From: an uncultured virus (IMG/VR IMGVR_UViG_3300025809_000009)
Lineage: Duplodnaviria > Heunggongvirae > Uroviricota > Caudoviricetes
Reading direction: 5' to 3' (one strand)
IMG/VR virus record: IMGVR_UViG_3300025809_000009
Length of the DNA stretch: 64,000 bases
The notes under the pieces were generated by a model, which was not told the origin of the DNA, made no database searches, and was given only the letters and a program-made list of their open reading frames with translations. The position numbers and the translations under genes were made by a program. Shown here in pieces: positions 1,399 to 60,042 of the stretch (the stretch's first letter is position 1; every line of letters begins with the position of its first letter).

Positions 1399-1401
1399 GA
1401 C

Positions 1402-1932: not shown

Positions 1933-1983
1933 ATATCTACAAGAACATTAGAACATAAATTATATAACTTTCAATTAAAAACA

Positions 1984-1991
1984 GTGTATTA
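1984..1991 (+). promoter_or_regulatory. Putative phage late promoter motif GTGTATTA
   Basis: Starts 17 nt before the ATG at 2001; the same motif recurs before several other structural genes. Confidence 0.6.
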
Positions 1992-2000
1992 TATACTACC

Positions 2001-40400: not shown

Positions 40401-41150
40401 ATTTATTCCAGTTAACACTCCAGTTGCTTGGCGACCAAACGCGTCGTTAGAGACAACCTCTAGCGCAAGAGTTCTGTCTAGATTTAATTCTGTTATTGTG
40501 TCATTTGACACTATAAAAGAAAAACCCGTATAAGCGTCCATCATATCAGATACCGATGCGGTATTGAGAGTTGACTGAAGAGCTACCGAGCTATTCAATT
40601 GTGTATCAGAGATTACATCGCCATTTTCTGTGTTTCTTATTTGCAGAGAAAAGTCTCTTAAAAGCTTATCGCTGAGCAGTTCGTTGCCCAACGACCTTCC
40701 TTCCTTCGCGTGGCCTGGAGGGGGAGATAGTCTCCATTCTATTTCGACATTTCTATTAATATACTCAGAATTAACTGCTAATAAATTACCGCTCTCAGAA
40801 GGTTCTATTTCGATAGTGCTTCCTATGTTTGAATCTTCTGGAAGATTTGAAACTTTGATTTCAGAAAAGGTAAAAGTATCATCAAATAACGGTGGGCTAA
40901 TCGATATTTTTTCCTCAATAAATTCAGAACGAATGCCTACCTCGCTTACTGCAAATATTCTGATTGAAAATGTACCGTAATTACCATTCAGCGATATGGT
41001 CTTCTGCGCGGTTTCTCCTTCAAAATCTACAAGCTTACTCCCTTTCCCTAGGTTGTATTGAAATGAGTAATTGTCGGACGAGCCAATGACCTCGTAATTA
41101 GCCTTGAGATCGTTTACATCAAACTGAATTCCTATTGCGGTAGATAGCAT
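34401..41150 (-). CDS. Large tail-tip/central fibre protein (C-terminal part of a gpJ-like host-specificity protein)
   Basis: FnIII-like motifs (IRIFAVSEVGIRS; YFWVRSVDHAGNKG), CBM5/12-like repeats, ATIGTAHIEEAAITNAKI pentapeptides, GGGxxN repeats, Trp-rich C-terminus. Confidence 0.75.
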   Translation of the reverse strand: MLSTAIGIQFDVNDLKANYEVIGSSDNYSFQYNLGKGSKLVDFEGETAQKTISLNGNYGTFSIRIFAVSEVGIRSEFIEEKISISPPLFDDTFTFSEIKVSNLPEDSNIGSTIEIEPSESGNLLAVNSEYINRNVEIEWRLSPPPGHAKEGRSLGNELLSDKLLRDFSLQIRNTENGDVISDTQLNSSVALQSTLNTASVSDMMDAYTGFSFIVSNDTITELNLDRTLALEVVSNDAFGRQATGVLTGINYLPTVDSLSYNLRGAKMSFSWSSQDTDFYAAQISSLAIPGDEEIYDPYNLQQSIDHYESLSRAPIWEKHNNYRVGDKVVHNSVVFECIQNYIYSSFPDVNTSDTSYWTNIGPVIDHSFTQENITENNKEFNQTWGYNYYYSFVPIDGYGTGVRTNLTETGLHPGGALNPFKSDVKIDNLNFIERDDDLIFRWNVTDQDNNLVDLNQYKFLVGSTDKPSILGISGSLYDSDTNLFLTGITEGLNSRTSVTENGVESISEDLPGTKVFETYEYTREINNSIYKVGGFPAHQDFSYSGQYNNGDHVIFENSLYRATSETALSSDKLMTPLVSPWSPGINYLFRTGLHHSDSFSYASGVYSVFGTVNNEIIGPDASDVIGLYNELESYSIGDLIISPNGNTEIYKGGKFFDVGDSVLYEGSLYTCIIQQESSDYISPGTGINHWKTASAFSNVSADIYKAIAAVPQSSEILPSTGYTHWQVQNPETSNKYYLLAENYDFPIRNWSQLDDFSSADFVVYANDIWSGVDSSGPNTPAGSRVPNLSNNSYWANTDNQSSDFSTSHQVGDKVFSNGAIYKCLANNPTGAPLEAVVDSASQINSSYQASQWIPYWELNTGFDDRIFKHEGIPESGKRSVGLELAILSPLGQILNSRKIVGNNPEPSILPQGFQVDSLSNVTQVHFNFNYAYGSREQTTKIQLYRSSDPVFSILDSNGFPGSGAGSFVSEILGPGDSTFGENITSITDSPPIPNIPGLGHQITGYYYKLLPFDSFGSGDLFNVTDNQGSLERVLVYPHGYNNQNENGYMGPVFSTTEDAIPGPVKDFKGDTAFRNYFLNWKMPDAEFNSANNIINTSPNDISHYEVWESEDNYLYFGTEDTTLDETRNLSGYRRITGDLTSIGPIPSEINDPASGITNATNVLNISAISPSVQVTHQGEPNDKRYFWVRSVDHAGNKGPFTGDANLGSSNDIIGLDLTLGQARTTDVSDFEQNITQTFPNTLALVPNNPFTANQPYGGEVSWDRHFVYNDGVGYVIGGSDTHDLKTSQGLSTAKYIYWKSGDMSALTAEQYSMLGLAAPGDKVVRLIDAEIDGAQNITSNQFSIKETDYDLGTNNQYNNHYIRFKNGLLDTQERKISNYQRFSNYATITLDRSFSQPPLNGDGIEILEEVAVSSAITNPLRSIQFSGQYRVSDYHPAGEGETSDPSAYAGPDMDSEKPSLLDDNDFIIARNAGGIPTPMWHAFANATIGTAHIEEAAITNAKIHNLTADKIRSSVIQSQDIQVGGDANSGQIRSAGFGLLNNSGTRGYDCVDAPGAGFAISGNGSFIFKTERGKLFFEEDELTIHGNIRQKDGSELTVMSMNAEPSVFNYEETADGIFKPELNQTSNITVRFNNSDITENDVRFKMELPDGTNVFNYTDYSNGYNTHGFEYQPNNTYFNSDTQVATATFKVGNKETNTAGFDKIIHGNDDIIDFQSVIIYASGIGTSTEHSTTVSVLANGAPGPTGKTPVYRGVWDSTKNYIGMEDGIQGSDTAEELRGDLVYYDNPSSPAGGNGHHYIAMKNSGPSSLVVAPGTHAQTDDYWKKFGAEFQSVATNLLLADNAVITHSLTMGSSDDDNPATNGAGGLIQSSDFVGGFDADGSLSASEDYSIAGFKLHKSATPPNDVYFDVGGPGVNYHSTSNPDDYSYIRYGSASKKIEIQGSFVNNSSRESVSFAATTSTDSQATFIGGGYENEIHKTASNLNSLGSSIVGGGLNNITGRFSFVGNGYNNNVGDNFSAIVAGYDNSMPDIDIDNNGANIIGAGSKNKIDGGSQQGVFAGRNNKIIYNPPVRDFGTYINSVWSSQQRRVVIGSDFYILNTNHLGGGSLNPEITASTPVGLSTAWSEGYYVDNVWFCDRLAAPTQMFMGNNAHSNHWVYAEDFLNISGKDYWLLYFPDFGSKPVTFWGFIAPLAAHALGGWAYFDPIRSPTSEGFWLWFSGVSSWVFIYNTSADAGFYYISTTQTTGYIP

Positions 41151-41153
41151 TTC

Positions 41154-44100
41154 TTATATCGTTAAATCGGTTAATATCAAAGTGTCAGGAGCTTCTGGAA
41201 TTCTCATGTCCGCTTGAGGGGGTATAGGCATAACTGGTTGCCTGACGACAGTTTGCTTGTCGACTGCGTCAAATTTAGATTGATTATATTCAAGACCAAC
41301 AACTTCATACTTGTTATGAGATTTTTCTTTTACACTCATTGTTCTAAAAAGTTGCCCCTGCAAGGATCTTTCAACCTCGGAAACAGGGGGAGGGATGAAA
41401 TTGATTTTCCCAAAGGATGTTATGCTTGCAGAGCTCAGCCTAGAAACAATAGCGGAAGAATTTTCTAATTCAAATTGATAATCATTTATTTTTATTAACC
41501 GCCAAGGATTAACGGACGTCGTCCACCTTTTATCTACATTATCGTACACATAAACAACATTTACATAATCATCAAAATCCCCAGAAGAATCTATTACATC
41601 TTCAACAAATACTTCTTGCCCATCCTGTATGACCTCTGTGTGAGTTTCGCTAAGGTTTATTCTTATGGATTCCTTTGCTTGCAGCGAAGAAGCTGCGCTT
41701 AAATAATCAAAAGAATTTATATCTACTTCCTTGTAATAGCCCGACCCGGTCAAAGTTTCTCTTCTTTGGTTAAGCGTTAAGCCCCCCAGATCCGAAGGAG
41801 AAGAATTTGTTAGGTTGGATCTTGGAGTGCCTACTATTTGATTTATAATATTCGGATGCCTAATAAAATAACCCGAGACTCCAAAAGACTTTTGAACAAT
41901 AATGTATTCAACATTGTTTAAAGTATAGCTATCTCCCACCGACCTTGAAGCGTCAGAGTCGTAAACAAAAAACTCGCACACGCTATTTCTATCATCGTAA
42001 TAAGGTATAACCCACCCACTTGCGGTACTGGATTCAGAATATAATGAATAAAAAAACCAAAAGGTATCTTTAAGCGAATCGTTGGTCCATACCCAACCGT
42101 TAGAAGAGCTTCCCTTTGATGACGAGGTGTAAAACCAAAAACCATCGTTTCCTGAAGACTTTCTTAACTGTCCAAGATATATCCAACCGAACTGCGTGAC
42201 ATACGCCCAATCATTGCCAAAAACGCGAACCCAACCAAGCCAGTCTGAGATCTTCCACCCTGGAAACTTCTTCGTGTCTTCGTTAGACTTTAACTCTAAC
42301 TTATCTACGACCGCCTGTTCGAGCTCTTTGTCTGTTTTCGCAGCCATCACGCCCTTTGCGCTCCAAGATGAGCCGATCATTATTTTAGTCAAAGCCTCTT
42401 TTGTTTTTTCTTGATCCTCCGGGCATATATAATGCAAGCCTCCATCGTTTCCAAGAGAATCTAAACCTTGGCTTGAAACATTTACCTCATCCCCTCCTGC
42501 AGAATAGCTTATTTTGAAAGTGTGTTTTGTTGAATCTTTTACATAATAAGCGGTGCTACCTCTTCTACTCATGCTAATCCCAGAAGGAAGAGATCCCTCT
42601 GTTGTAAATCTAACTCTATCTCCGTCGGCAAAGCCGTGATTAAATATTGAAAACGTATTGTCTGACAAAGACAGCTCAAAAGGAATTTTTAAAGAAAAGC
42701 CTCTCGCTATTACATTTTGTCCCTGGGGCCCTTTTTTTGTTACCTCCGAGTTGTAACCAATAGAGCATTCAAATTTAATTACCTGAGGAACTAAAACAGA
42801 CTCTATTTCGGCATCCTGATCAAGAGAGGAGCGCTCAAAAGGAGCTCTTAAGTTTATTTTCTCTTCCGTAGAATTAGCTAGACCAGTACATACTGTCAAT
42901 TCGACCATAGATACGAACGGCTCATCAACCATATGCTTATCTAACAAAATATATGGGCTATATACATCAAAAGATTTTTTCAAAACTCTATCCTGACCAG
43001 ACTGCTCAAATTCATATTGTTTTGTATAAAAATTTACATCCAAAACCCTTCCGCTCTTTGACTTACCCACCCTCATTTCATCAGAAACTTCGAAAATTGA
43101 TCCGGGATATAAATATGAAGCCTCGACAGAAGTCTCAAAAGAAACAGTTTCTGTTTCTAGTTGGGTGGTAAACAGAACCCACTTGGCGAGTCTTCTTGCT
43201 TGACTGGAGGATGTTACCCCAAAACCAAGAGTCTCCTTTTCTTTGAACCCAAAAGTTCTAACTGCATTTTTATCTTCTTCTTGAGCGGTTGCAGGCTTAA
43301 AGCTATCATCTTTATTGTTATATCTAACGATAGAGCTTGTTATTTTTTGATCCTTACTTACCCCAGAGTACGAAAAACCATCTTGACTTACGTTTGAATT
43401 ATTAAATAATTGAATAGGATTCTTATATGAATCTTGAATCGCCATTATTTTTCCATTATAAAAAGTAATAATCCCCCTAAATACAGACGCCATATTGTTA
43501 ATAAGCTGAAGAGCTTCCATTTCATCAGTTATATACAAGTTAGAAGTAAATCTTGGCTCGACTATAGCATGATTGATTTGAACCGCGCAACCACCAATCG
43601 TCTTGATAGAAGCTCCCTCTTGAAACGATGCACTCAAACCGCTTAAATCTGGACCCGAGACAATGACAGTGCCTCCCCCACTTTTATTTGGATTGCTTGA
43701 TATAATGTCTCTCTGTTCTATTTTGATTTCGCCAGATAACTGAGTAGCTCTTGATCGCAATTGCTGTATGGCTTCGCTTTTATTTGTTCCCGTCAAAGCC
43801 GAGATATCCTGGTTTCTTGATGGAATAAAAAAAGCTATCTTTTTCCCTTTGAATTGGTTTCCCGTTCCAAAATCTTTGATAAAATTATCGGAGCTATATG
43901 ATGCTTGGTCTATAGTTATGCTAAAAGAGTCTAGTTTGCTATTCGGCTCAACCACCGAGTTAAAATTTATAGGAGAACCAGAAGAGGTTTCTATTTCGTA
44001 ATCGGTTCTAACCAATTCGTCGCAGTATTTTGATATTCTATACAGCTGCCATCGATCGATATATTCTTCATATAGACCGTACTTCCCAACCCCATATCTA

Positions 44101-45818
44101 GCATTAGATAATAAATCATAAAAAACCCAAGCAGGATTATCCGTCCAATACTTGTCTTCATCGCTTACAGAATGTATGGACGAAAGAGAATCCGGCTGCC
44201 CCTTAAACAATCCATCCCAAGGCCCGTCATAATGCTTTGAGATTGGATCATAATTCGAAGGAATTAAAACTTTCTTTAACCTCGCATGATAAGATCTATC
44301 GGGTAAATTTGAAAAATTCTTACTGTCGAATTTGAGTTTGACGATAGCGCTATAAGGATAAAGCAGAGGCTCTTCTACGTATTCAGCAACGGAAGATAAC
44401 TTTAAACTTCTGTCTCTGCCTATTCCCCCTAACGCTCCTTTTACCGAGGGATCATATTCATTGCTTAACTTTATTAATTTAAAAGTTATACCTTTAGAGC
44501 TTATTTTTGGGCGATCAAATTCAATAATAACATCAAAAGCATACATCGAAGTGCAGAGGCCTGTAACAATAAACCTATTGCTTTCGTCGGTGGTTACGGC
44601 TCCGTTCAATGAATCATCAAACTTAACGATACAACCAGAACTTGGAGATAAGACATTGTGTTCGACATAGTCCTTTTCCATTAATATTGCAAATTGAACA
44701 TTGTTTTCCTGATTACTACCGTCATCGTTCTGTATCGACAAAGTTGTGTTCATTTCAATTCGAATTTTGTTAACGTTTTTGTTTGCCACAAAATGAGCTG
44801 CTATTTTGGCTCCGTTTTTCTTTGCGCTTTCTACATCAGGCCTATGCTCGGCTCCCCCCTCGTTTTTTGTGTAGGGTCCGGCTCCATATAACAACACGGA
44901 ATGATCAACAACAAAACAATTAAAATCTGAAATAATCAAAGTGTCTTTTTCTTCTCCTGTTTTGATCACAGGAGCCTCGCCATTTTCATTGAGTATATAA
45001 TTCGCAGTTCCAGTCTCGGCTTCGCTTATTGGGGTATTCACAACAGGCACATTGTTTAAAAAAATACCCTCCCGAAGGTCGTAACCCAAGACCTTCTGCA
45101 CTAGTCTCTCAATAATGCCAGAACGACTAAGGTTTATTAAGTTCCCATTTTGATCACAAAGTCCAGCTATCGGACCTTCACTCAATAAATCCAAAAACTC
45201 TATCTCGGTATAAGACTCTAAAACATGAGGCTTTCCTGGGACGTTTTTTCTTTTTGAGAGTTTGTGTTGAGATATATTTGTTGAACCTATTTTTAATCTT
45301 CCATAACCTAAAGGTACTGCAACGCCTTGACTTTGCCTATTAGCTATTCCCTTGAGCAAATAAGATTTTGTTGTTGTAGGGGTTTTTCTTTCGGGCGGCT
45401 TAAATAACGCTTTCATTATCGCCCCAACAACAAAAGACACAGCAACGGCTACAACTATTTTACCAACAAGAGTTAATCCGCCCGCAGTTGTTCCACCAAC
45501 AAACATAATTGACATTATAACTGCCGCATTGCCTTGTGGCGCGGGAACAATATGCATTTCTTGCTTCTTGTCCCTTATCTCAACCATAGACTCGGAGATC
45601 ATATGCTTTTTTAATTCTTTTTTTGATGAAATATCGGTCGGAGATTTATTTAAAACAGCATAATCAATACCGCCCGATTGACTTTTGGCAAGATACTCAA
45701 GAAACCCCTCCTTGTTAGCGTCTATAGCGGCAAAAACCTCCACAGCTGAGTCCGCGTTCAAGGTCCACTTTCTACCAAAGCGCTTTCCAAGCTTTCCATA
45801 TAAATATACTGTTTTCAT
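41154..45818 (-). CDS. Lambda gpI-like domain fused to gpJ-like tail tip protein (N-terminal part)
   Basis: MKTVYLYGKLGKRFG (gpI start); QGVAVPLGYGRLKIGS; DLLSEGPIAGL; WTDNPAWVFYDLL...RYG...YCDELV; EPRFT; GVTSSSQARRLAKW. Confidence 0.92.
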   Translation of the reverse strand: MKTVYLYGKLGKRFGRKWTLNADSAVEVFAAIDANKEGFLEYLAKSQSGGIDYAVLNKSPTDISSKKELKKHMISESMVEIRDKKQEMHIVPAPQGNAAVIMSIMFVGGTTAGGLTLVGKIVVAVAVSFVVGAIMKALFKPPERKTPTTTKSYLLKGIANRQSQGVAVPLGYGRLKIGSTNISQHKLSKRKNVPGKPHVLESYTEIEFLDLLSEGPIAGLCDQNGNLINLSRSGIIERLVQKVLGYDLREGIFLNNVPVVNTPISEAETGTANYILNENGEAPVIKTGEEKDTLIISDFNCFVVDHSVLLYGAGPYTKNEGGAEHRPDVESAKKNGAKIAAHFVANKNVNKIRIEMNTTLSIQNDDGSNQENNVQFAILMEKDYVEHNVLSPSSGCIVKFDDSLNGAVTTDESNRFIVTGLCTSMYAFDVIIEFDRPKISSKGITFKLIKLSNEYDPSVKGALGGIGRDRSLKLSSVAEYVEEPLLYPYSAIVKLKFDSKNFSNLPDRSYHARLKKVLIPSNYDPISKHYDGPWDGLFKGQPDSLSSIHSVSDEDKYWTDNPAWVFYDLLSNARYGVGKYGLYEEYIDRWQLYRISKYCDELVRTDYEIETSSGSPINFNSVVEPNSKLDSFSITIDQASYSSDNFIKDFGTGNQFKGKKIAFFIPSRNQDISALTGTNKSEAIQQLRSRATQLSGEIKIEQRDIISSNPNKSGGGTVIVSGPDLSGLSASFQEGASIKTIGGCAVQINHAIVEPRFTSNLYITDEMEALQLINNMASVFRGIITFYNGKIMAIQDSYKNPIQLFNNSNVSQDGFSYSGVSKDQKITSSIVRYNNKDDSFKPATAQEEDKNAVRTFGFKEKETLGFGVTSSSQARRLAKWVLFTTQLETETVSFETSVEASYLYPGSIFEVSDEMRVGKSKSGRVLDVNFYTKQYEFEQSGQDRVLKKSFDVYSPYILLDKHMVDEPFVSMVELTVCTGLANSTEEKINLRAPFERSSLDQDAEIESVLVPQVIKFECSIGYNSEVTKKGPQGQNVIARGFSLKIPFELSLSDNTFSIFNHGFADGDRVRFTTEGSLPSGISMSRRGSTAYYVKDSTKHTFKISYSAGGDEVNVSSQGLDSLGNDGGLHYICPEDQEKTKEALTKIMIGSSWSAKGVMAAKTDKELEQAVVDKLELKSNEDTKKFPGWKISDWLGWVRVFGNDWAYVTQFGWIYLGQLRKSSGNDGFWFYTSSSKGSSSNGWVWTNDSLKDTFWFFYSLYSESSTASGWVIPYYDDRNSVCEFFVYDSDASRSVGDSYTLNNVEYIIVQKSFGVSGYFIRHPNIINQIVGTPRSNLTNSSPSDLGGLTLNQRRETLTGSGYYKEVDINSFDYLSAASSLQAKESIRINLSETHTEVIQDGQEVFVEDVIDSSGDFDDYVNVVYVYDNVDKRWTTSVNPWRLIKINDYQFELENSSAIVSRLSSASITSFGKINFIPPPVSEVERSLQGQLFRTMSVKEKSHNKYEVVGLEYNQSKFDAVDKQTVVRQPVMPIPPQADMRIPEAPDTLILTDLTI

Positions 45819-49528: not shown

Positions 49529-50446
49529 TTATTTAATTATCTGCTTTACAGACACTGAGCCCATCGCATGCGAGCCCTCTGATATTGAAATTGACTGACT
49601 GTGTATCCTTCCAGAACAAGAGAAATTAGCGATCTTTTCTCCCTGCAAGCTGTACAAAAAAGCCTGTATAGTAGAGTCGCTTAAGCCTTCGGGAGTTGTT
49701 CCTGATTGATAATTTCCGTCTGGATTTAAATTTCTTATCATATCGTTTGATTCTATATTCATCTCGGCTTCAATATTTTCAATTGATACGCGAGTAGGAA
49801 CCACTCCATTCGCGGTTGTATTAATAGAGGTATGTTCGCCGTCTTTTATATGATTATGTACCTTCCTTCCCACTATTATATTATAATTTAATTTAGATAC
49901 CTCAAATTGTTTTTTATTTGCGGTGTCCATATTTGTATTGCTTGCTTTTATTTCTCCAAATGATTTAAGTCCGTGAGCAGGATCAATATTTAATTCTTGA
50001 AACCTTCTATCTACTGTTTTTAATATTGTACCATATATATCATAACTTGCATTAGCTTGTATAACCTGAAAAGGAGCTATACTAAAACTAAAATTAGTTA
50101 AATACATATTATCAAATAAATAACGACCAACTATATTTCCATCAATAGGATTTTCACTCATACCATCTTTTATTTCAAACAATCTATCAATAGAATTAAT
50201 AATATTATTTTGTTTAAAAAATTCAGCAGTAATTACAAAAGAAATATCAAGCTTGCCGCGAAGACCTGCGGTAGCTGCAAAATTAACAAACTCGGTTTTC
50301 GCTCCGACTATCGAGAGATCAAGGTCTCCGTATACTCTTTCTGGTTCTAGAGTTGGGGTTATTGATAAATTAGCAGACTGAACCATTAGGTCCTTGCCTC
50401 CCAAAGAAATCTTACCATCTTCAAATCTTAAAAAAGGCTTGCTCAT
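49529..50446 (-). CDS. Tail-tube-fold protein (tube initiator/tip-proximal ring)
   Basis: VQSANLSITPTLEPERVYG...NMYLTNFSFSIAP and a second similar half; located between tape measure and M-like genes. Confidence 0.5.
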   Translation of the reverse strand: MSKPFLRFEDGKISLGGKDLMVQSANLSITPTLEPERVYGDLDLSIVGAKTEFVNFAATAGLRGKLDISFVITAEFFKQNNIINSIDRLFEIKDGMSENPIDGNIVGRYLFDNMYLTNFSFSIAPFQVIQANASYDIYGTILKTVDRRFQELNIDPAHGLKSFGEIKASNTNMDTANKKQFEVSKLNYNIIVGRKVHNHIKDGEHTSINTTANGVVPTRVSIENIEAEMNIESNDMIRNLNPDGNYQSGTTPEGLSDSTIQAFLYSLQGEKIANFSCSGRIHSQSISISEGSHAMGSVSVKQIIK

Positions 50447-51324
50447 ATTACTGGATTATGAAGGGTCTCATATGATTTATAAGTTAAAGATATACTCATT
50501 TCTCCTTCGACCGAGGATGTTATAGATTCGCTTATTAATCTAGCCTTAACGCCAGTAAAAGCATTAATAACTTCTTTTGTTTTAGAATCTTTTATTTGAA
50601 TAACGACATCGCTTTCTGGAGCCGCTCTGAGACGATCTTTGGTTTGTCTTACTTCGTATTCATTTACAATCATTGTAAAATTAATATCCGTTTCGATTGG
50701 ATAAATTGTATCGATTTGTATTGGATCATGATTTTCGTAAGTGGTTTTGCTGTCGGCATACCATTCGGCTTCGGTGCCTTTTGGAATTGCATACATTGGT
50801 TGCAAATTTAAAGCTCGACTAAAGCTGAAATCTGTTACTGCGTCTGTTGAAAAATCGCTTACGTTTATTGAAATACTGGCCTGGTCAGTAAATTGTATAG
50901 GTGGATGAGGCTTGGTAGCTTCTTGAATTAATATTCCGCTTCCTAGATCCCCAAATACAGTGATATCAGTTTCAATATCAGGAAGATCGCCCACTGTACA
51001 GTTGACTGAATAACGAGTAATTCTTCCTTTTGTAAACCCAAAACCTTTCGTGTTATTGTCGTATAAGATTGATCCACTTATTTCATTTTCGTCGTAAGCG
51101 TACTGCCCGACTACATTCAGATCCAGTATAGGATCCCTGCTCACCATTTTTCTTGAAATCGAAAAATTACCTTCCAGCGGAGCGTTAACGAAAGCATCTA
51201 TAAATCCTACACCAGCAACCTTGATTGGCTTTTCTGTTATTCCGTAACTTCCATTAACATTTACTACTCCAGAAAGAGCGGTATTGTTTACAACTATAGT
51301 TTGTTCATAATTTGAGAAAGTCAT
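50443..51324 (-). CDS. Tail-tube-fold protein (tube initiator/tip-proximal ring)
   Basis: KGRITRYSVNCTVGDLP and ARLISESITSSVEG match NGYVSNYSIEASVGSMP and ALLEGESFSSSIG of the major tube protein. Confidence 0.6.
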   Translation of the reverse strand: MTFSNYEQTIVVNNTALSGVVNVNGSYGITEKPIKVAGVGFIDAFVNAPLEGNFSISRKMVSRDPILDLNVVGQYAYDENEISGSILYDNNTKGFGFTKGRITRYSVNCTVGDLPDIETDITVFGDLGSGILIQEATKPHPPIQFTDQASISINVSDFSTDAVTDFSFSRALNLQPMYAIPKGTEAEWYADSKTTYENHDPIQIDTIYPIETDINFTMIVNEYEVRQTKDRLRAAPESDVVIQIKDSKTKEVINAFTGVKARLISESITSSVEGEMSISLTYKSYETLHNPVI

Positions 51325-51326
51325 GA

Positions 51327-54300
51327 TCAGTCACTCAACAAGCCTCCTGGTCGCTGCTCGTCCATTATCACAGAAATAACTTGTTGTTTTACTTTTTCCG
51401 CCAACTGCGTGCTTTTTTCTTGATCTTCTGACGAGTCTTTTGGATTGGCTCCTGCTTTATCATCCTTTTTCTCTGATTTCCCACTTCCCTTGTCCATATT
51501 AACCGTTATATTAATATTATTTGTATTTCCGCCAGAAGTTCCAGTTTCTGAGTTTTCTGTTAAGGGGGTCACTGCTCCACCATCATTAAATTTTCCTGCA
51601 TTTATTCGGTCGAGCATTGGCTTGCCAAGTTGTCGAGCGCTACTTGCTCGAATTACATATTCTCCTTCGCTGAGCATTGCGGGAATTTGATCGATGCCAG
51701 ACTTGCCAGCTATGTGGCCGCCGTTGGCATAACCATTTATTTTTCCTCCTCTATAAACAGCTCTTGACTCCTGGATAGACGTTGGGCTAAAAGGGCTGTA
51801 ATTGTCTTTAACGATTGAGCCAAAATCAAAGTCGTTTTCAAAGGGTTGATTTATGCTCATCGCCTCAGTTCTTGACATGCCGGTTTCTAGCATTGTTTGA
51901 TTTACTGCGGCTGAGTCTATGCCAGAAGATTTGCCCCAAGAATCAAGCATTGATTTTTCTCCTAGTGCTCCAGATTCAGCAAGGCCCTCAAGGCCAGAGG
52001 AAACCATACTTCCAATTCCAACACTCAGAGCGGTACCTACGAGCATTTGCATTAAAGCTCTTTTTTTGGCTTTTTTCTCAGCCTCTTTTCTCATTCTTTC
52101 TTGAATGATTCCTTTTGTATATTGAGTATCCTCTTGAAGTCCTAGGTTTCCAGATTGTCCGCTATAGAAAAACCCAGACATTGCTTGAGATTGATATCTT
52201 CTTCCTGTGTTGTAACCTTCTCCTCCTCCAAAGTTTGCAGCAAGAGCGGATCCTGGCTGAGGCTCGTCTGGCTTACCTCCAGTTGAATAACCTGGAAGTT
52301 TTCCGCCTGCGTTTAATCTATGCATAAATCCGCCACCGTATTTCTTCACAGCGTCGCCACCCATTACATATTCGCCATTAGTTACCATTGCAGGAACTCC
52401 GCCTCCTTTAGAATATTTTCTTACTCCTCCTCCGCTAGAAAACGGTAAAGCTCCAACGATTGCATCGGCGGCTTTGCCAAGGTATGCTTGTTGAATTGCT
52501 CCAAGAAAATTCATTGCAATATTATTCATAACATCGCTCAAGTCATCGGCTTTATTTATTGCTGCTTGCATACCGTCAACAAGGCCGTTTCTAAATTGAT
52601 TTGTTAATTCACCACCAAGTCTAAACTCCATCGTTTCAGCTTGCTCGACAATTCTTTTTTGAGCGTCCCTAGCTCCATTACGCATTGCGCCAGGTCCGGT
52701 TTCGTATTCCCTCTTAAGTTTTAATCTTTCCTTCTCTTTCTCTAAGAGTTCTTGGGCGCTTGATATTTCTGTTTTTGTCTCTGCGTTTATGTTTTTTATT
52801 TTTTGTTCGATTTCGTCTAGGTTCTTTTTTCTTTCTTCTTGCGAATTTAAAAGCGCATCATACTCTTCCCAATCAGCCTCGCTTTTTAGTGTTATTTGGC
52901 CAGTCACCATACCCTCAAGCCTTTTTTCCTTAAGTTCGTCCCGTTTCTTTTTTGTATCCAGTCCGGCGAGTTTGTCTTTTTGATTTTCTTCGAGGGTTGT
53001 GATTTTAGATTCTAATTTAAATCTTTTCTCGGACATTGCAAAACTTTCTCTTTCTCTACCGGTTTGATATCCTGGGCCTACAGCATTCAACCTTCTTGCT
53101 GCGGCAACTTGTTCGGTAAAACCTCGGATTTTCTGGGAAGACTGAAGGCCTTCTGAAGACATGCGGTTTTTTCTTTCTAAATCTTTTATAATTTTATTTT
53201 CTGTCGCAACATAAAGATCTTGGCCCAATACTCTCTTAGCCGAACCTGCTTGTGATATTTTACTTTGTCTTGCTAGAGTTTCGTCAGACCGCTTTTTGTA
53301 CACAAGAGATTCTATAGCTGCGAGATCTTGAGGGGAAACTCCATCTATCTCTTTTAATTTACCCACAAGCTCTTGTCCGCTCATTTTAGAGTAAGGTTTT
53401 GTAACATCTATTCTTGATATTCTGTTTTTTTCGCTAGCCTTGATGCCCATCTTCTTAGCTAAGTCACTCCTGACCGAGCTCTGCATACTAGGAGATCGTT
53501 TCACTAAAGTCATTAAGCCCTCCTTAAGACTAGAGTCTGCACCCCGAAGAGAAGAATCTAATTTTTCAGCGGCAGAATTCAGGGCTTTTTTGTATTTTAT
53601 TTGCGCTTTCTGTTGTTCGGTTATCGCGCCACCCATCACTTTTTCTTGAAAATCTAAATTTTCAGAAATTTGCCGATACTTATCTTTTATTCTTAATTGA
53701 GCCAATGCGGATTCTTGCTGTGAAACTAACATCGCTTTCTGATGGTTTAACTTAACAATCAAACCGCGAACTTCCTCTTTTCTTAAATCAGCAGATTCAT
53801 TTTCAGCTTTTCTTTCCCCAGCCATAAAAGACTCAAACATGACTTTTTTTCTTGATACATCAGCTTTCTCTAATTCTTTGGCATACTCTTTTCCCGTCCC
53901 TTTAAATTCGCTGCCTGCCTCAGCTCCTTTTGCAGAAAAAGTATAATCGGAAGGTAATGCGCGCAAGGCGTCTGAGAGTTTAGAATCCAGATTAGTATTC
54001 ATAATTTCATTCATGACTTTAACTTTTCCTTGAGCTTCGGGATCTTTTTCTTTTTTGTAAATCGTTGAACTTGTTAAAGGATCAAAGCCTTTTGCGACGT
54101 TTATGGTTTTTGAATTTTCTTTTTTTATTTCCTGATTAAGTCTATTGTAGCCCTCTCTAAAATCTTTTAAATGTTTCTTAGCTTCTGGGAAATCTGAGAA
54201 AAGAGAAACTAAAGAGGACCCCATGCTTTTTGAATAGTCTAAATCGTCTTTCGCTTTTTTAATTGCGGCCTCTTCAGCCTTGCCTAACCCATCAACTAAT

Positions 54301-57300
54301 CCGTATAAACCTCCAACAGTAGCTCCTATAGCTGTGCCCAGCGGACCAAACATCATTCCCATTGCTGCTCCGCTACCAGCCCCTTGTAGAAAACCTCCGG
54401 TGGCTGCGCCAGCCGTACCCCCAATTGCGTCTTGCGCAAAACCTGCAGCCATAGGCAAGCCCATCATCAAACCCATTTGCCCACCAGTGCTACCAATCAT
54501 TCTTCCCGCCCTCGTTCCAGCAAACCTTGAGCTTGCGTTTTGTAGCCCAACGCTTCTCGCGGCTCTTTGCGTAGCTGCTTTTAATTTTTCTGTGGTCCCA
54601 ATTAATTGATTTGTTTTTTTGGCTACTCTGTCTTGAGCGCTAGAACTTACGTTGTATTTGTTCCCAAGTTTTTGCATCATCTCTTGCATTTTCTTATGAG
54701 GAACCCTGCCCGTTTCAAATCTTTTTATAACACCGGCAATAGCTTTGTTATACTTTTTAGCGTTGCTCTCCGTTTGGGATTGCGCACCACTACCTCTATA
54801 ACCAACCACGTCAGAACTTGTAATTTCTGGTGCATAATTCGGCACGTATCCATTTGCAGCGCCAAATACATCTTTCAATCCATTTGGTTCGTCGTCTGTA
54901 TTGGTTACGCCCAGACCGATTGGATTACTTTTATTCATTAGTGCTGAATGAGAGCCAATTCTTATTTTCGAAACAGGAACGCCAGCTTCTTTTTCTCTAC
55001 CTATTGCATCAGATAATGGGTTGGCGAAGTTGGGGATGTATCCGTGAGATTTTAATTGACTATTTAAACCTACCCTAGAAAATTTGCCGCTTTGTAAAGA
55101 CTTAAACCCTGCCTTGCGAAGAAGAGTTGTTTGTTCTTCGTTGCTACTACTCCATGGTTTGTCGCCAACAAAAAGGCGGCCATCTTTTCTAGACAATATA
55201 CCTTTATTTAGATCAGATGTTTTGCTTAAGTTAGGAGCGCCAGCTTTACCAAACCTAACATCATATATTTTTCTAGCGAATGATTTAGCATTTTTTATGT
55301 TTGTGTTTATTTTAGCTTCAGCACCTTTCCTACCTTTGCTACCAGGAACCCCAAACAATTTATATAATTCTTTATTTCTTGGCAAATCAATTCTTGCACC
55401 TTGATCTTCTGTGATTTTATCGGTCTCTCCCACACCGCGTATAATGCTTTTTGCCACAGCCTCAAAGATATGGCCCGAAACAACAGCCATTTTACTTTTT
55501 GGTAAATCACTGTTCATATTTGATTTATCCATAGAAAAAGTATCACCTAGGGATAAACTATTTAAAATTTGATTAGTAACCTCAAATCCCTTATTTTGAA
55601 GTTTTTCATTTATTTGGTCTTCGAATCTTTTTGAGCCTCTTTTTTTATCTGATTCATCTAAGGTGTAAAAATCAAAAGCGACTTTAGCGCCCTTACCTTG
55701 ATTGGGATTCGCGGTCTTTTTTCCTTTAGCGGGAGCATGAATATCTGTAAATCCTTTTGGTGGAGATCCGTCAGACCTAGCTTGGTAAACTCCACTATCT
55801 GCAACACCAGGAACAACATAATAATAGTTACCAATTTGATCTGAACCTCTAGATGCGGCGAGACCAACATAATTAGAAGAATTTTGATTAATACCATATT
55901 GAACTCTTCCCTGTTTAGCTGTAAACTTAGAAGTTCTCGGTTTAATTTTCTTAAAATTAGGTATATATCCTCCCGCAGCATATGGATCAAATCCATGTAT
56001 ACTACCAAATGCTTGTTGATAATTCTCTCCAGCCTTACTTGACTTTGGAGGCATGATCGCAGGTTGACTCATCCCCTTAAAATTCTTTACTTTTTCTGCG
56101 CTGTTATATATTACCGAGCCTTCGCCAGGCATATTCATACTTCGAATACTTCCAGCAGCATATCCACCTCGCGCAGCTTGCTCGCGTTCTGGATCTGCAA
56201 AATTTGGAATGTGTCCGCCCGCTCTTCCCTTTCGAGGAGCAAGGCTTGCATTGTACCCTTTCGTGTATAAACTAGCGGCAACACTTTTTGATACAGAGTT
56301 CAACATGTTAGCTTCAACAACTTGAGCCTTCAAGAGTCCAAGGATTATTTTTTCCTTTTCCGTTCTTGAAATATCGGTTCGCAACATTTCCTTGCTTATC
56401 GCTGCGTTTTGCCCAAATAAAGTAACAAGAGAAGTTTGTATTGCTTTTTGTTTATGAGCTTCGCTTGTTACCCCAATTAAAGATTGCAGACTTTGATTCG
56501 CATAAACCAAAGCTTTAGCAAATAACTTTATAAATACTGCGGAAATAACGACCAACCCTGGACCAGTTATGATATTACCCAAGCCCTTTAAAAAACCTTG
56601 AGCGAAATCGCTACCAGTGGATTCTCCACCGCCAAGCATTTCATTTGCTCCTTCAGCCAGTCCCTTGAAAACATTCAAAACCTTTTCCATTCCTGGAGCA
56701 AGCATGATTTCTCCAATCTGTGCGCTTAATTCTTTTAAAGCTATTCCGGTTTCTGTGGCCATTGCAGACATGGTCTGCCTTAATTGATCGTTTTTGTCTA
56801 TAGCTTCTGTGGTGGCCCCTGCAGAGATTTGAGTAGCGTTTGCAAGTATACCGTTTTGCTTTGCAGCGTCACTCAGTACAGCTTTTAATATATTGATTTG
56901 AAAAACTCCACCAACCGTCTGAGCTATTTGTGCTTTTTGGGATTCCGTAAGATGATCAAAAGTGTTAGCGAGATCGGTTAAAATTCTTCTTGCGCCAATC
57001 GTATTGCCTTCCAAATCTCTTACAGCGATACCCAGATTTTCCAATTGATTTAAAGTGTCTGTTCTTCCTATTCTTGTGAAAATTGTTTTAAATGAGTTTC
57101 CGATTACTTTACCACCTCGAGCAGTTTTTTGTTGTGCTGCAGTAACCAGACCTACCAACTCATCAATATCCACTCCAGCACTTTTCGCAGCCTGACCCGT
57201 TCGAGATATCGCATCAGCAAAATCTTCTGCACTAACAGCAAATTTTACATCAACCGCAGCGAATTTACTTACAAGTTGAGTAGTGTCTTTTATTTGATCT

Positions 57301-57839
57301 CCATAAGTATTCATGGCCGCAGTCAAAGCTTTTACTGCGTTTGCAGAATCCATTCCAGTTAATCGAGTCAAAATAAGAGCGTCTCGAGTTCTTTTTAAAG
57401 ACTCCTCCATCGTCAAGCCTTGACGAGCATACTCGGTAGCCGCTTCAGCGGCAACGTTAAAAGCTGCTCCGGTTTCCTTGGCGGTTTTAAATAAGCCGTT
57501 TGAGAATTTTTCTAAATTCGCTGTAGATAAATTCATAACTACATTGATATCAGCAAGAGCTTTTTCGACTTCAACAACATTTTTAACTAAAGCTTTAAAG
57601 CCGTCAGCTACTCCATTGATTATCGCCATACTCGCGCCAAACGCAATGATACGAGCGTTAGCAGCTTCCATAGATTTGCTAAACTCGTCAGCTCCACGCT
57701 TCATATTCCCAAGCGGCTGGGTAGCTCCCTTGTCATCCACCGTTATTTTGATCGGTGTTTTGCGAATACGGTTTACAGCCGCTTGAACAGCCGCTTCAAG
57801 CGGCTGTGTATTACCTTGTACGTTGAGATTTATAGACAT
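51327..57839 (-). CDS. Tail tape measure protein (TP901-type core) with inserted domains
   Basis: AATEYARQG...DELVGLVTAAQQKTARGGKVIGNSFKTIFTRI core, Gly/Ala-rich hydrophobic segments, coiled coils, D.IPAMLSEGEYVI motif and terminal EQRPGGLL. Confidence 0.93.
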   Translation of the reverse strand: MSINLNVQGNTQPLEAAVQAAVNRIRKTPIKITVDDKGATQPLGNMKRGADEFSKSMEAANARIIAFGASMAIINGVADGFKALVKNVVEVEKALADINVVMNLSTANLEKFSNGLFKTAKETGAAFNVAAEAATEYARQGLTMEESLKRTRDALILTRLTGMDSANAVKALTAAMNTYGDQIKDTTQLVSKFAAVDVKFAVSAEDFADAISRTGQAAKSAGVDIDELVGLVTAAQQKTARGGKVIGNSFKTIFTRIGRTDTLNQLENLGIAVRDLEGNTIGARRILTDLANTFDHLTESQKAQIAQTVGGVFQINILKAVLSDAAKQNGILANATQISAGATTEAIDKNDQLRQTMSAMATETGIALKELSAQIGEIMLAPGMEKVLNVFKGLAEGANEMLGGGESTGSDFAQGFLKGLGNIITGPGLVVISAVFIKLFAKALVYANQSLQSLIGVTSEAHKQKAIQTSLVTLFGQNAAISKEMLRTDISRTEKEKIILGLLKAQVVEANMLNSVSKSVAASLYTKGYNASLAPRKGRAGGHIPNFADPEREQAARGGYAAGSIRSMNMPGEGSVIYNSAEKVKNFKGMSQPAIMPPKSSKAGENYQQAFGSIHGFDPYAAGGYIPNFKKIKPRTSKFTAKQGRVQYGINQNSSNYVGLAASRGSDQIGNYYYVVPGVADSGVYQARSDGSPPKGFTDIHAPAKGKKTANPNQGKGAKVAFDFYTLDESDKKRGSKRFEDQINEKLQNKGFEVTNQILNSLSLGDTFSMDKSNMNSDLPKSKMAVVSGHIFEAVAKSIIRGVGETDKITEDQGARIDLPRNKELYKLFGVPGSKGRKGAEAKINTNIKNAKSFARKIYDVRFGKAGAPNLSKTSDLNKGILSRKDGRLFVGDKPWSSSNEEQTTLLRKAGFKSLQSGKFSRVGLNSQLKSHGYIPNFANPLSDAIGREKEAGVPVSKIRIGSHSALMNKSNPIGLGVTNTDDEPNGLKDVFGAANGYVPNYAPEITSSDVVGYRGSGAQSQTESNAKKYNKAIAGVIKRFETGRVPHKKMQEMMQKLGNKYNVSSSAQDRVAKKTNQLIGTTEKLKAATQRAARSVGLQNASSRFAGTRAGRMIGSTGGQMGLMMGLPMAAGFAQDAIGGTAGAATGGFLQGAGSGAAMGMMFGPLGTAIGATVGGLYGLVDGLGKAEEAAIKKAKDDLDYSKSMGSSLVSLFSDFPEAKKHLKDFREGYNRLNQEIKKENSKTINVAKGFDPLTSSTIYKKEKDPEAQGKVKVMNEIMNTNLDSKLSDALRALPSDYTFSAKGAEAGSEFKGTGKEYAKELEKADVSRKKVMFESFMAGERKAENESADLRKEEVRGLIVKLNHQKAMLVSQQESALAQLRIKDKYRQISENLDFQEKVMGGAITEQQKAQIKYKKALNSAAEKLDSSLRGADSSLKEGLMTLVKRSPSMQSSVRSDLAKKMGIKASEKNRISRIDVTKPYSKMSGQELVGKLKEIDGVSPQDLAAIESLVYKKRSDETLARQSKISQAGSAKRVLGQDLYVATENKIIKDLERKNRMSSEGLQSSQKIRGFTEQVAAARRLNAVGPGYQTGRERESFAMSEKRFKLESKITTLEENQKDKLAGLDTKKKRDELKEKRLEGMVTGQITLKSEADWEEYDALLNSQEERKKNLDEIEQKIKNINAETKTEISSAQELLEKEKERLKLKREYETGPGAMRNGARDAQKRIVEQAETMEFRLGGELTNQFRNGLVDGMQAAINKADDLSDVMNNIAMNFLGAIQQAYLGKAADAIVGALPFSSGGGVRKYSKGGGVPAMVTNGEYVMGGDAVKKYGGGFMHRLNAGGKLPGYSTGGKPDEPQPGSALAANFGGGEGYNTGRRYQSQAMSGFFYSGQSGNLGLQEDTQYTKGIIQERMRKEAEKKAKKRALMQMLVGTALSVGIGSMVSSGLEGLAESGALGEKSMLDSWGKSSGIDSAAVNQTMLETGMSRTEAMSINQPFENDFDFGSIVKDNYSPFSPTSIQESRAVYRGGKINGYANGGHIAGKSGIDQIPAMLSEGEYVIRASSARQLGKPMLDRINAGKFNDGGAVTPLTENSETGTSGGNTNNINITVNMDKGSGKSEKKDDKAGANPKDSSEDQEKSTQLAEKVKQQVISVIMDEQRPGGLLSD

Positions 57840-57877: not shown

Positions 57878-58864
57878 CTATCCTACTCCATGCAATTTCA
57901 TTAAATCTTCCATATTTAAAGTTCCGCCCTTCTTTTTGGCTTCTTCGTGAAGACTTACCCCTCCCTTAGGCTTGTCCACCCCAAGATACTCATAATCCTC
58001 ATCCTTAGCTCCAACTAGAGTTCCAGCGCTACCTTGATTTAGTTTGTCTTTGGCTTTGTCTCGCTCTTCTTTTGAGGAGCCTCCAAAGTCTAACAGTTTC
58101 GCGGGATCTTTCCTTATATTATCTGGTATATTTTCATTATTATCAAATATATTTTTAAATACTCTAGTATAAACTATTAATCTTATTTGATTGTATGTTA
58201 AATTACAAAACGGTTTTCCATAAAATTGCATACTGTCTTCAGCAAAACTTAAATATGGATTATAAAAATCTTCTAATATAGTATATTGTATATTTTCTTC
58301 ATTAAAGCTCTTAAAGACATCGTTATAACGAGAAACTATTTTCTTTAAATCTTGATTCTCTAATTGATCAAATTCATCTTCACCAAATAAAGGAATCAAT
58401 AAATCTTTATCTTTATAAAAACTTTTAATCATATAAAAATCATTTAATCTATCTTTTGCATATTTCTCGCAAGTGTTTCCAACAAGAGACATCCTCTGAG
58501 CGAGTTTTTGATTCAGTGCGAGGGTTTCTTCTTCTATTGTTTTTTCTTGCTTGTCAATCTGGTTCTTGATCACCATTTTTGTTTTGGCGGTCTTTAAAGT
58601 TTCAAGAAAATACTCCTTATCCTCTATGAATTTTTCGTCCTTGTCTCCCCAGTCTCCCTCTTCTTTTAAAAAAGCAAGCATCTCTTCTTCTGTGGGCACG
58701 CCCCGACGAAGGGCTGCGTTAAAATATTTTTCCTCTATCTCTTCAAGCTCTACTTGGTCGTGCGGAGTCAAGTGCTTGATGTAAACAAAGTCCTCGTCAA
58801 GAATTGTGGAAGAGTAACCTCTAACTACATCCCTAAATATCTTTCTGCGCTTGACCGCTTCCAC
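57878..58864 (-). CDS. Putative tail assembly chaperone
   Basis: Charged helical protein immediately upstream of the tape measure gene; similar to 58870..59679. Confidence 0.5.
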   Translation of the reverse strand: MEAVKRRKIFRDVVRGYSSTILDEDFVYIKHLTPHDQVELEEIEEKYFNAALRRGVPTEEEMLAFLKEEGDWGDKDEKFIEDKEYFLETLKTAKTKMVIKNQIDKQEKTIEEETLALNQKLAQRMSLVGNTCEKYAKDRLNDFYMIKSFYKDKDLLIPLFGEDEFDQLENQDLKKIVSRYNDVFKSFNEENIQYTILEDFYNPYLSFAEDSMQFYGKPFCNLTYNQIRLIVYTRVFKNIFDNNENIPDNIRKDPAKLLDFGGSSKEERDKAKDKLNQGSAGTLVGAKDEDYEYLGVDKPKGGVSLHEEAKKKGGTLNMEDLMKLHGVG

Positions 58865-58869
58865 ATATA

Positions 58870-59679
58870 TTAAATACTACCGTCCTCGATATCTTTGTCT
58901 AGCTTTTCGAAATCTAGTTTCGAAACTGCGCCAGAACTGTAATACCAAAAGCTAAAAAATGCGGCAACCTTTCCTCCGACTATATCATAAAGATCGTTCC
59001 CCTCCTCCTCAAGCTCGTAATAAGTTTGAAGCTTTTGCTCAAAATCGCGACCCTCAAATAAAGGAGATATTTCCTCTTCGTCAGACTTCTGAACAAAAGT
59101 GAGATTTAAAATATACCATTGAATAACTTTATTCTCGGCTCTTACGTCAGCGGTGTGGTTGAAAAGGTTAGAATATGAAGTCTCGACATTAATAATATCT
59201 TTCCTTAAAAGAGCTATCTCTCCAGCGATTTCCTTTAATCGCGCTGTATCCTTTTCTGTTTTAACATTTTTTATCTGAATCTTTTCGCTTTCCTGGGAGA
59301 ATTCTCCATACCTTACGTACATTTTTGTCAGAGCTTTTGCGTCCTCTTCCGCAAGCAGTCCACCTGTATCGCTGTATTTTTTTGCGAGCATGGCTTTTGT
59401 TAAAATCCCTCGCTTTATACAATTACTCATTTCGACACTAAATTCCAATTCGGCATCTTCTATTTGCCTGCGAGTTGGCTGCTTCATTATGAGTCGATAA
59501 GGAATTGGCTCAACCACTTCCTTGGTTACAGAAACTTCTTCCTCTTCGCCGGTTTCTTCGTTCTTGACTTTGCTCGTCTCTGTTTTCTTGACCTTCTCTT
59601 CTTTTTCAAAAGTGAAGCTGTAAATTTCACGCAGTTTTTTGCGGGTATCGTTTATTGTTGGGGTTGCTGTGTCTGACAT
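58870..59679 (-). CDS. Putative tail assembly chaperone
   Basis: Acidic helical protein with MKQPTRRQ motif, in the canonical chaperone position. Confidence 0.5.
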   Translation of the reverse strand: MSDTATPTINDTRKKLREIYSFTFEKEEKVKKTETSKVKNEETGEEEEVSVTKEVVEPIPYRLIMKQPTRRQIEDAELEFSVEMSNCIKRGILTKAMLAKKYSDTGGLLAEEDAKALTKMYVRYGEFSQESEKIQIKNVKTEKDTARLKEIAGEIALLRKDIINVETSYSNLFNHTADVRAENKVIQWYILNLTFVQKSDEEEISPLFEGRDFEQKLQTYYELEEEGNDLYDIVGGKVAAFFSFWYYSSGAVSKLDFEKLDKDIEDGSI

Positions 59680-59688
59680 AATTTTATT

Positions 59689-59976
59689 TTATTTAAATGT
59701 AAAGCCTATGGTATAATTATCTAAATCCATTTCGATATTTCTAATAGTTTCATTGCCAATATCTAAAGTTCTTTTTCTTAGGTGATGCAACTTATCTAAA
59801 CTGAAGTAGTCAGCTTGATCCACAACTGGCACGCAACCCTCTGGCAAATTATTTCTTAATTTATTAAAATTAATTTGATGCTCCTTATGTAAATCCTCAA
59901 GCATAACGAGGAAACCCTTAAAAAGGGAAACCGTATTCCTGTGGCAACATTTTTTAAAAATGTCTTCTGCTTCCAT
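59689..59976 (-). CDS. Hypothetical protein (start probably ATG 59976, MEAED...)
   Basis: The upstream alternative start lies within the promoter motif; A-rich leader precedes ATG 59976. Confidence 0.6.
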   Translation of the reverse strand: MEAEDIFKKCCHRNTVSLFKGFLVMLEDLHKEHQINFNKLRNNLPEGCVPVVDQADYFSLDKLHHLRKRTLDIGNETIRNIEMDLDNYTIGFTFK

Positions 59977-60011
59977 ATGTATTATTGTTGTAGATCCTTG
60001 TACCTGTATCG

Positions 60012-60042
60012 ATATACACAAAAAAAAATCTTTAGTGTAAAA
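60012..60042. promoter_or_regulatory. Back-to-back late promoter motifs (GTGTATAT minus, GTGTAAAA plus)
   Basis: tacac 60015-60019 and gtgta 60035-60039 between divergent tail operons; plus-strand ATG 14 nt after the motif start. Confidence 0.65.

Follow-up and report, generated by a model that had tools for sequence, protein, structure and literature searches.

The tape measure protein (TMP) of an uncultured siphovirus is divided by copies of a short peptide into cassettes, one of which is exchanged between related phages. We analysed a 64,000-nucleotide stretch of DNA (hereafter the window) from IMG/VR record IMGVR_UViG_3300025809_000009 (Caudoviricetes), in whose TMP gene four copies of G[YH][IV]PN[FY] delimit a series of modules. 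That these junction motifs are module, or cassette, boundaries is well supported by comparison with related proteins. The central module, here called cassette B, is swapped between related phages yet keeps enzyme-like residues, which suggests cargo delivered into the host before the DNA. The overall reading that we favour, with middling confidence, is a motif-bounded array of modules in which cassette B would be a virion-delivered, effector-like domain and the motif a recognition element for a partner.

Identity and layout of the tape measure protein

The gene at 51327-57839, on the minus strand, encodes the TMP of an uncultured marine siphovirus. Its product matches PF10145 (PhageMin_Tail) at residues 119-311 (E 7.6e-29; 101.5 bits against a curated cut-off of 33.2 bits) and at least 11 PHROG tape-measure families (best E 9.6e-51), and the family profile matches the solved TMPs 8zdo_S (gp16; E 9.8e-7) and 8iyk_H (E 0.003). 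The genes 3' of it match lambda M (PF05939), L (PF05100), K (phrog_30, with a weak JAB match) and I-J (phrog_32, phrog_31 and PF13550). Pfam, PHROG, the tip-gene context and the solved structures therefore all bear out the original prediction, which had called the gene a tape measure. A hydropathy scan finds hydrophobic segments at residues 415-449, 1157-1185 and 1928-1951. The same protein, 100% identical, is present in one 44-kb virus record, and the similarity of the whole TMP to cultured phages is confined to the N-terminal domain, at <30% identity. The features that make up the array are the following.

51327..57839, minus strand: TMP gene, 2170 aa in one open reading frame (PhageMin_Tail, PHROG tape-measure families, tail-tip context)
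56217..57839, minus strand: conserved N-terminal block, aa 1-541, holding the PhageMin_Tail domain (mean pairwise identity 0.82 in 107 relatives)
56493-56597, minus strand: strongly hydrophobic segment in the N block, aa 415-449 (hydropathy scan)
56196..56222, minus strand: junction motif 1, aa 540-548, A-G-G-H-I-P-N-F-A, with the core GHIPNF, aa 542-547, at 56199-56216 (regular expression)
55971..56198, minus strand: cassette A, aa 548-623 (76 aa), nearly invariant (mean identity 0.86, many invariant columns)
55953..55970, minus strand: junction motif 2, GYIPNF, aa 624-629 (regular expression, blastn break)
55044..55952, minus strand: cassette B, aa 630-932 (303 aa), hypervariable, basic, exchangeable insert (mean identity 0.26)
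55269..55475, minus strand: conserved polar constellation of cassette B, aa 789-857 (alignment of 45 inserts and AlphaFold secondary structure)
55026..55043, minus strand: junction motif 3, GYIPNF, aa 933-938 (regular expression, blastn resumption)
54852..55025, minus strand: cassette F, aa 939-996 (58 aa), nearly invariant (mean identity 0.86)
54834..54851, minus strand: junction motif 4, GYVPNY, aa 997-1002 (regular expression, blastn break)

Of 7999 candidates scored in a search with residues 520-1020, 988 proteins reached E ≤ 0.001; the best 120 of the 988 are almost all TMPs, 1500-3400 aa long and of metagenomic origin. When residues 531-1010 were compared by tblastn with 50,697 phage records, no match, and so no cultured relative, was found. 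Among species-representative genomes the sole match is an 8-kb contig in a Flavobacteriaceae bin, a weak indication of the host.

A nine-residue junction motif confined to the TMP

A regular-expression search places G[YH][IV]PN[FY] at four sites of the TMP, starting at residues 542, 624, 933 and 997. These are the copies that had been noticed from the sequence, each exact in position and in its flanking G or A residues. The composition of the protein predicts 6e-5 chance matches, and one or more were obtained in 1 of 20000 shuffles; in the six frames of the window, the motif occurs at these four TMP sites only. The census was extended to 121 TMPs: the window protein, the copy identical to it, and 119 further proteins that ranked best in the search. 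All 121 carry three to six copies (four in 87, five in 30, three in 2 and six in 2). The consensus of 511 copies in 120 proteins is A-x-G-[YHF]-[IV]-P-N-[FY]-A, in which G, P and N are invariant and the flanking alanines are found in 480 (position -2) and 415 (position +6) of the 511 copies. Motifs 1 and 2 keep a fixed distance of 80-82 aa, and 63-66 aa separate the last two. All 66 loci examined carry the motif and have no flagged stop codon between its copies; in 64 IMG/VR loci the copies all fall within one open frame.

The motif is equally restricted in longer relatives. In G002, a relative of 184,324 bp that is 100% complete, all four matches to the motif at the DNA level lie inside the TMP gene, as do all five in G003, a 140-kb contig, and a control with the reversed pattern gave no match in either. 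Synonymous differences among the motif codons show that selection is on the peptide. The possibility that the motif is a DNA-level signal was rejected on the same observation. Judged from these sequences, the junction motif is a linear, protein-level signal of nine residues, found only in the TMP and always between modules.

Cassettes are exchanged at the junction motifs

The cassettes bounded by the motif fall into three that are always present and three that are optional.

Cassette A: 76 aa, always present
Cassette B: 228-310 aa, always present
Cassette F: 57-59 aa, always present
Cassette C: 86-94 aa, optional
Cassette D: 121-135 aa, optional
Cassette E: 244 aa, optional

Region identities and cassette counts were taken from 107 canonical relatives. 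Mean pairwise identity is 0.82 in the N block and 0.86 in both A and F, and it is 0.26 in cassette B and 0.27 in the 600 aa that follow the array. The transitions are abrupt. The window TMP (P0001) and its relative P0055 are 97-100% identical to about residue 630, about 20% identical to residue 932 and 80-83% identical over residues 933-1003, after which identity drops again. At the DNA level, among the blastn matches listed, similarity ends in 25 of 25 at gene nucleotides 1883-1902 (motif 2 ends at 1887), resumes in 25 of 25 at 2785-2806 (motif 3 starts at 2797) and ends once more in 25 of 25 at 3005-3021 (motif 4 ends at 3006). The suggestion that the motifs are cassette boundaries is thus borne out in both protein and DNA, since similarity to relatives breaks exactly there.

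The blocks on either side of a motif also have discordant identities. L023 is 95% identical to the window gene in the N block and 77% in cassette F, and L060 77% and 90%, respectively. Identity of the N block and identity of the insert are uncorrelated (r=0.12): in 299 of the 394 pairs of proteins with N blocks ≥93% identical the inserts are <25% identical, and conversely, 76 pairs with N blocks ≤82% identical share inserts that are >60% identical. These discordant identities, together with the breaks at the motifs, indicate that cassette B moves from one backbone to another and is joined to it at the motifs, so that the insert is variable among relatives and mobile, as had been anticipated.

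The original prediction further asked whether different domains swap between the motifs, and this holds in part. Optional cassettes C, D and E are unrelated to the others and are placed between additional motif copies; none is present in 80 of the 107 proteins, 26 carry one or two of them, and a single protein has a tandem motif. In contrast, the slot that motifs 2 and 3 enclose is always filled by one very divergent family. The 107 inserts form a single family by single linkage, with 21 subtypes at identity × coverage ≥ 0.4, and the idea that different domain families occupy this slot was accordingly rejected. Searches of Pfam, PHROGs and PDB sequences with cassettes A, F, C, D and E found no family. 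Cassettes A and F, compared with their flanking motifs included, align with each other (hhalign probability 91.6%, E 8e-7); part of this score comes from the motifs that they have in common. In the AlphaFold model cassette A has pLDDT <50.

Two TMPs of 3427-3432 aa (P0111 and P0113) have a duplicated cassette A and a cassette E, with about 500 aa of low-complexity 'GSKNQ..PPQERQ' repeats inserted between their first two junction motifs.

Conserved residues in a divergent insert

As had been described from the sequence, the insert between motifs 2 and 3 is basic: its 303 aa have a net charge of +25 (54 K/R and 29 D/E). The inserts of all 107 relatives are basic as well, with net charges of +6 to +25 and pI values of 9.1-10.4. 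An alignment of 45 distinct inserts leaves four invariant positions and only these, G789, E793, K843 and K857, each conserved in 45 of 45; position 841 is E or D in all 45, and D818 and D820 are present in 33 and 27, respectively. In the window TMP the constellation consists of G789, F792 and E793 in a helix, D818 within RIDLP, E841-x-K843 in a strand and K857 in a further helix, the secondary structure being predicted. The strings SGHIFEAV, RIDLP and AEAK, to which attention had been drawn earlier, all lie within the insert, and their E...D...ExK residues map exactly to its invariant columns, D818 with the frequency just given.

A regular expression for E...D...(D/E)xK matches 84 of 117 inserts, and 20 of the 33 misses prove by eye to be DFDV...DYK or FDF...EMK variants. 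In the divergent subtypes the pattern reads G..FE...GDFDV...DYK or AE...FDF...EMK. An exhaustive HMMER search with the insert recovered 10 proteins, of which nine are TMPs or TMP fragments, and the junction motif is present in seven of the eight that were inspected. Since the insert matches TMPs almost exclusively, no free-standing homologue was seen.

P0128, a protein of 7819 aa that lacks the junction motif, gives a weak match to the insert (E 1.4e-4) in four stretches, which may be compositional.

Is cassette B a nuclease?

The order and approximate spacing of the PD-(D/E)xK residues fit cassette B. The nuclease families Mrr_cat (PF04471), YraN/UPF0102 (PF02021) and Tox-REase-7 (PF15649) share with it the succession G-x-x-F-E in a helix, h-D-h, h-(D/E)-x-K-h in a strand, and then a helix, and the same G..FE / D / xK pattern was found in the 15 Mrr_cat domains compared. 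Under relaxed hhalign settings the FE, D and xK columns come into register with Mrr_cat, without significance. A language-model look-up of the family fragment P0123 returned Tox-REase-7 as the sole named family, with a score of 0.84, below the trust threshold; hhalign gave no signal for this lead, and an ESM Atlas look-up with the insert returned nothing usable. The AlphaFold model of the insert alone (303 aa) has a pLDDT of 80 and a pTM of 0.67. A structure search with this model found no restriction-endonuclease-like match (Foldseek best E 0.52 in PDB and 0.18 in BFVD), and fold searches with the 480-aa model of residues 531-1010 gave no significant match. Unlike the PD-(D/E)xK nucleases, cassette B has no significant profile or structure match and lacks the predicted strands before the D; in many relatives, moreover, the domain stops directly behind the helix after ExK and thus has no fourth core strand. 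No VRR_NUC (PF08774) was found in a search of 151 genomes, and no Mrr_cat in G002 or G004.

At locus L109, positions 867-2670 (minus strand) encode a Rhs-type protein with a Tox-REase-7 domain at its end. The next open reading frame, of 201 aa, overlaps it by 26 nt and could be its immunity gene.

A series of results weighs against the reading that we favour. In the insert model a single clear strand (ExK) lies near the conserved residues, without the three-stranded meander expected of the fold. A Pfam hmmscan assigned none of the 45 inserts to a PD-(D/E)xK family at E ≤ 1, and the insert had no match among PDB sequences, just as it had none in PHROGs. In hhalign comparisons, a low-power test, P was 0.49-0.67 against Mrr_cat, 0.48-0.68 against YraN, 0.63-0.83 against Tox-REase-7 and, for one individual Tox-REase-7 sequence, 0.88. 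Among true families, three control pairs scored P 0.0014, 0.043 and 0.59, and the hhalign negatives therefore carry little weight. The remainder of the TMP is basic as well, and the charge of the insert is therefore weakly informative. The C-terminal half of the TMP is also mosaic, with no motif at its breaks; the motif is therefore not needed for recombination itself and is tied to the cassette array. Finally, the same site occurs in no other candidate protease substrate in G002, G003 or the six frames of the window.

The nuclease fold that the original prediction assigned to the insert was thus not recovered, the confident model having no restriction-endonuclease-like match and the sequence no Pfam, PDB-sequence or profile-profile link. 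That cassette B belongs to the PD-(D/E)xK superfamily of nucleases is in our estimate a serious possibility that falls clearly short of being probable. Some enzymatic or metal-binding role, on the other hand, is probable.

Possible roles of the junction motif

The AlphaFold model of residues 531-1010 (480 aa; pLDDT 61.9, and poor outside the insert) gives the motifs low confidence. The residues ahead of motif 3 change with the insert. This speaks against a constant folded environment for self-cleavage and in favour of a partner that recognises the motif. No other protein of the complete relative genome contains the motif, which is therefore not a general maturation-protease site. From these patterns we infer that the motif serves to be recognised by a partner, which could be a protease or equally a virion component, such as the tube lumen, a chaperone or another TMP chain. 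Proteolytic release may be the single most likely role, though we stop short of calling it probable, and an uncleaved role in docking or oligomerisation appears about as likely.

An alternative that we consider unlikely is that the TMP is a polyprotein cut at every G[YH][IV]PN[FY], by a phage or host protease or by self-cleavage at Asn, and frees a PD-(D/E)xK nuclease that enters with the DNA. The TMPs of lambda and T5 are processed, and tetravirus capsids undergo self-cleavage at Asn-Phe. A nine-residue consensus with an invariant P-N at every module boundary resembles the sites of a polyprotein; the modules are independent units, the insert retains its invariant E, D, (D/E)xK and K, and the motif regions or insert termini are of low confidence, linker-like, in both AlphaFold models. 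This alternative must be set against the missing nuclease fold and family match, the confinement of the motif to a single protein of the complete relative genome, the changing sequence before motif 3, and the absence of a cultured relative from the 50,697 phage records. Family scans of the neighbouring genes found no protease candidate adjoining the TMP gene. In its boldest form, which seems very unlikely to us, the TMP would be an effector-delivery polyprotein cut at Pro-Asn|Phe/Tyr junctions after tail assembly or during ejection, possibly by Asn-driven self-cleavage; it would release a hypervariable nuclease, shuffled by recombination, of a new, highly derived PD-(D/E)xK lineage, and other orphan cargo in some phages, through a channel of the C-terminal part of the TMP into the cytoplasm before the DNA. 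If true, this would be a phage counterpart of polymorphic-toxin delivery and a natural plug-in site for cargo.

A possible, if doubtful, alternative is that the motifs remain uncleaved and serve for docking or register. By binding to the tube lumen, to the tail assembly chaperone or to one another within a TMP trimer, they would pin the chain where modules meet; cassette B would be non-catalytic and its conserved charged residues structural. Pro-Asn is a common turn former. Restriction of the motif to the TMP agrees with such a role, as does the conservation of cassettes A and F beside it, which at 0.86 is the highest in the protein and is expected for contacts with conserved virion partners; the similarity of A and F likewise suggests a repeated structural unit. 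However, neither AlphaFold model shows ordered structure at the motif, and an invariant E, D, (D/E)xK and K in a domain that otherwise drifts to 16-26% identity characterises active sites more than scaffolds.

Proposed delivery with the tape measure

TMPs are the first phage molecules to enter the cell. In the favoured reading of a motif-bounded array with a delivered cassette B, the TMP would fill the tail lumen after assembly and would be expelled first at infection. Its C-terminal part, with the glycine-rich hydrophobic segments, would engage the envelope, and the cassette array would follow, bringing a basic, enzyme-like domain to the entry site just before the DNA, either tethered or released at the junctions. 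Cassette B could be a virion-delivered domain because the TMP leaves the tail before the DNA; it would then be a fast-evolving, effector-like domain that reaches the host envelope or cytoplasm ahead of the genome, where it would most likely bind metal and act on nucleic acid. Its diversification would be in keeping with an arms race where host defences encounter the TMP.

The same diversification is open to a different explanation. Cassette B might be a determinant of host interaction or of defence evasion, in contact with an inner-membrane entry protein or forming a surface seen by defences, and hypervariable through an arms race, with the motifs merely delimiting it; this, too, we hold to be unlikely. 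Hypervariability and exchange between backbones are in its favour, and host defences do bind or sense TMPs (10.1101/2025.11.03.685801; PMC13581612). One report states that the lambda TMP engages the inner membrane and associates with ManYZ during injection, and that the defence nuclease SNIPE binds TMPs, with escape mapping to variable TMP regions (10.1101/2025.11.03.685801). According to a second, Avs18 also senses a TMP segment, but this target is the most conserved helical segment of the TMP and not a variable one (PMC13581612). Furthermore, neither the invariant acidic and basic constellation nor the invariant junction peptide is explained by a role in host contact.

Comparison with known systems

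TMPs with embedded enzymes are already known: those of mycobacteriophages carry Rpf-like or peptidoglycan-hydrolase motifs, and Pb2 of T5 has a C-terminal muralytic peptidase. Like these, the present protein is a long TMP with a globular, probably enzymatic domain that would leave the tail before the DNA. It differs in that the domain has no recognisable family, lies in a cassette array bounded by an invariant nonapeptide, is hypervariable and is exchanged between backbones; in Pfam, the insert matched none of the muralytic families.

In polymorphic toxins (Rhs, CdiA) a conserved motif marks the switch from the delivery scaffold to a variable C-terminal toxin. The TMP shares with them a conserved delivery scaffold, a short peptide at which homology collapses, and a hypervariable, enzyme-like cassette exchanged by recombination. 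Here, however, the cassette is internal with conserved flanks on both sides, the scaffold is a virion protein, and no sequence relation was detected (hhalign P 0.63-0.88 with Tox-REase-7).

Capsid-delivered cargo is exemplified by the internal proteins of T4, the inner-body proteins of phiKZ and SPN3US, and P1 Dar, with the consensus sites of the prohead protease. The likeness lies in packaged proteins that are ejected into the host and in a short consensus at their boundaries, cleavage being putative in the present case. The difference is that the site is in the tail and not in the head, and in no other protein of the complete relative genome.

The strings GYIPNF, GHIPNF, YIPNFA and HIPNFA were not found in a full-text literature search, and none of the papers listed by topical searches describes a motif-delimited, recombining internal cassette array in a TMP. 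The effector idea for cassette B is plausible. In a large and wholly uncultured marine family, then, the TMP can hold a motif-delimited slot whose content evolves and recombines on its own, apart from the other parts of the tail. Should a delivered enzyme occupy that slot, phage effectors would have a new way into the cell, and the slot would be a hotspot in the arms race between phage and host; the junction peptide would, in addition, be an existing boundary at which protein cargo could be engineered into siphovirus tails.

The C-terminal part of the TMP and the neighbouring genes

Beyond the array, the following features were recognised in the C-terminal part of the TMP.

54285..54371, minus strand: glycine-rich hydrophobic segment, aa 1157-1185 (hydropathy; weak DUF1269 match; block partly conserved in relatives)
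52287..52424, minus strand: first C-terminal 'PAMV-x-x-GEYV' unit, aa ~1806-1851, followed by a degenerate GKLPGY (sequence, regular expression)
51588..51746, minus strand: second C-terminal 'IPAMLSEGEYVI' unit, aa 2032-2084 (phrog_13338 match at aa 2032-2084; the region matches 8zdo_S with the family profile, E 9.8e-7)

The two C-terminal 'PAM[VL]-x-x-GEYV...LNAG' units are mutually homologous (hhalign probability 96.6%), and the GKLPGY after the first is a degenerate look-alike of the junction motif. In a distant relative, P0129, the string 'SEYIVPNYA' joins the junction-motif type and the C-terminal-unit type.

The G+C content of the window is about 38%, and it contains no tRNA gene. The genes neighbouring the TMP gene, at 57878-58864, 58870-59679, 59689-60021, 50443-51324 and 49529-50446, match no family at E ≤ 0.001 and give only noise at E ≤ 1. 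Two giant tail-tip proteins are encoded at 34401-45818 (minus strand). One, of 1554 aa, has a lambda I-like part (aa 1-185) fused to a J-like part, and the other, of 2249 aa, has a CBM5/12 carbohydrate-binding match and a weak Tal-like match. An open reading frame of 861 aa at 10650-13235 (minus strand) matches phrog_15433, 'tail sheath' (E 4.3e-45), and no Pfam family. Set against the lambda-type, non-contractile tip genes, the annotation may be mistaken, or the protein may serve a different function.

A large block of sugar-metabolism genes occupies positions 6249-33000 of this phage genome. It includes a three-domain glycosyltransferase (GT25, DXD and GT34-like) at 6249-8444, two DUF2827 genes at 8422-10619, a fusion of HAD hydrolase and nucleotidyl transferase at 26252-27673, and GT1- and GT9-like genes at 29914-32999. 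A fibre fragment of 210 aa with an S74 chaperone domain lies at 33764-34396, after the giant tip proteins, and a second S74 fibre is found at 2001-4631.

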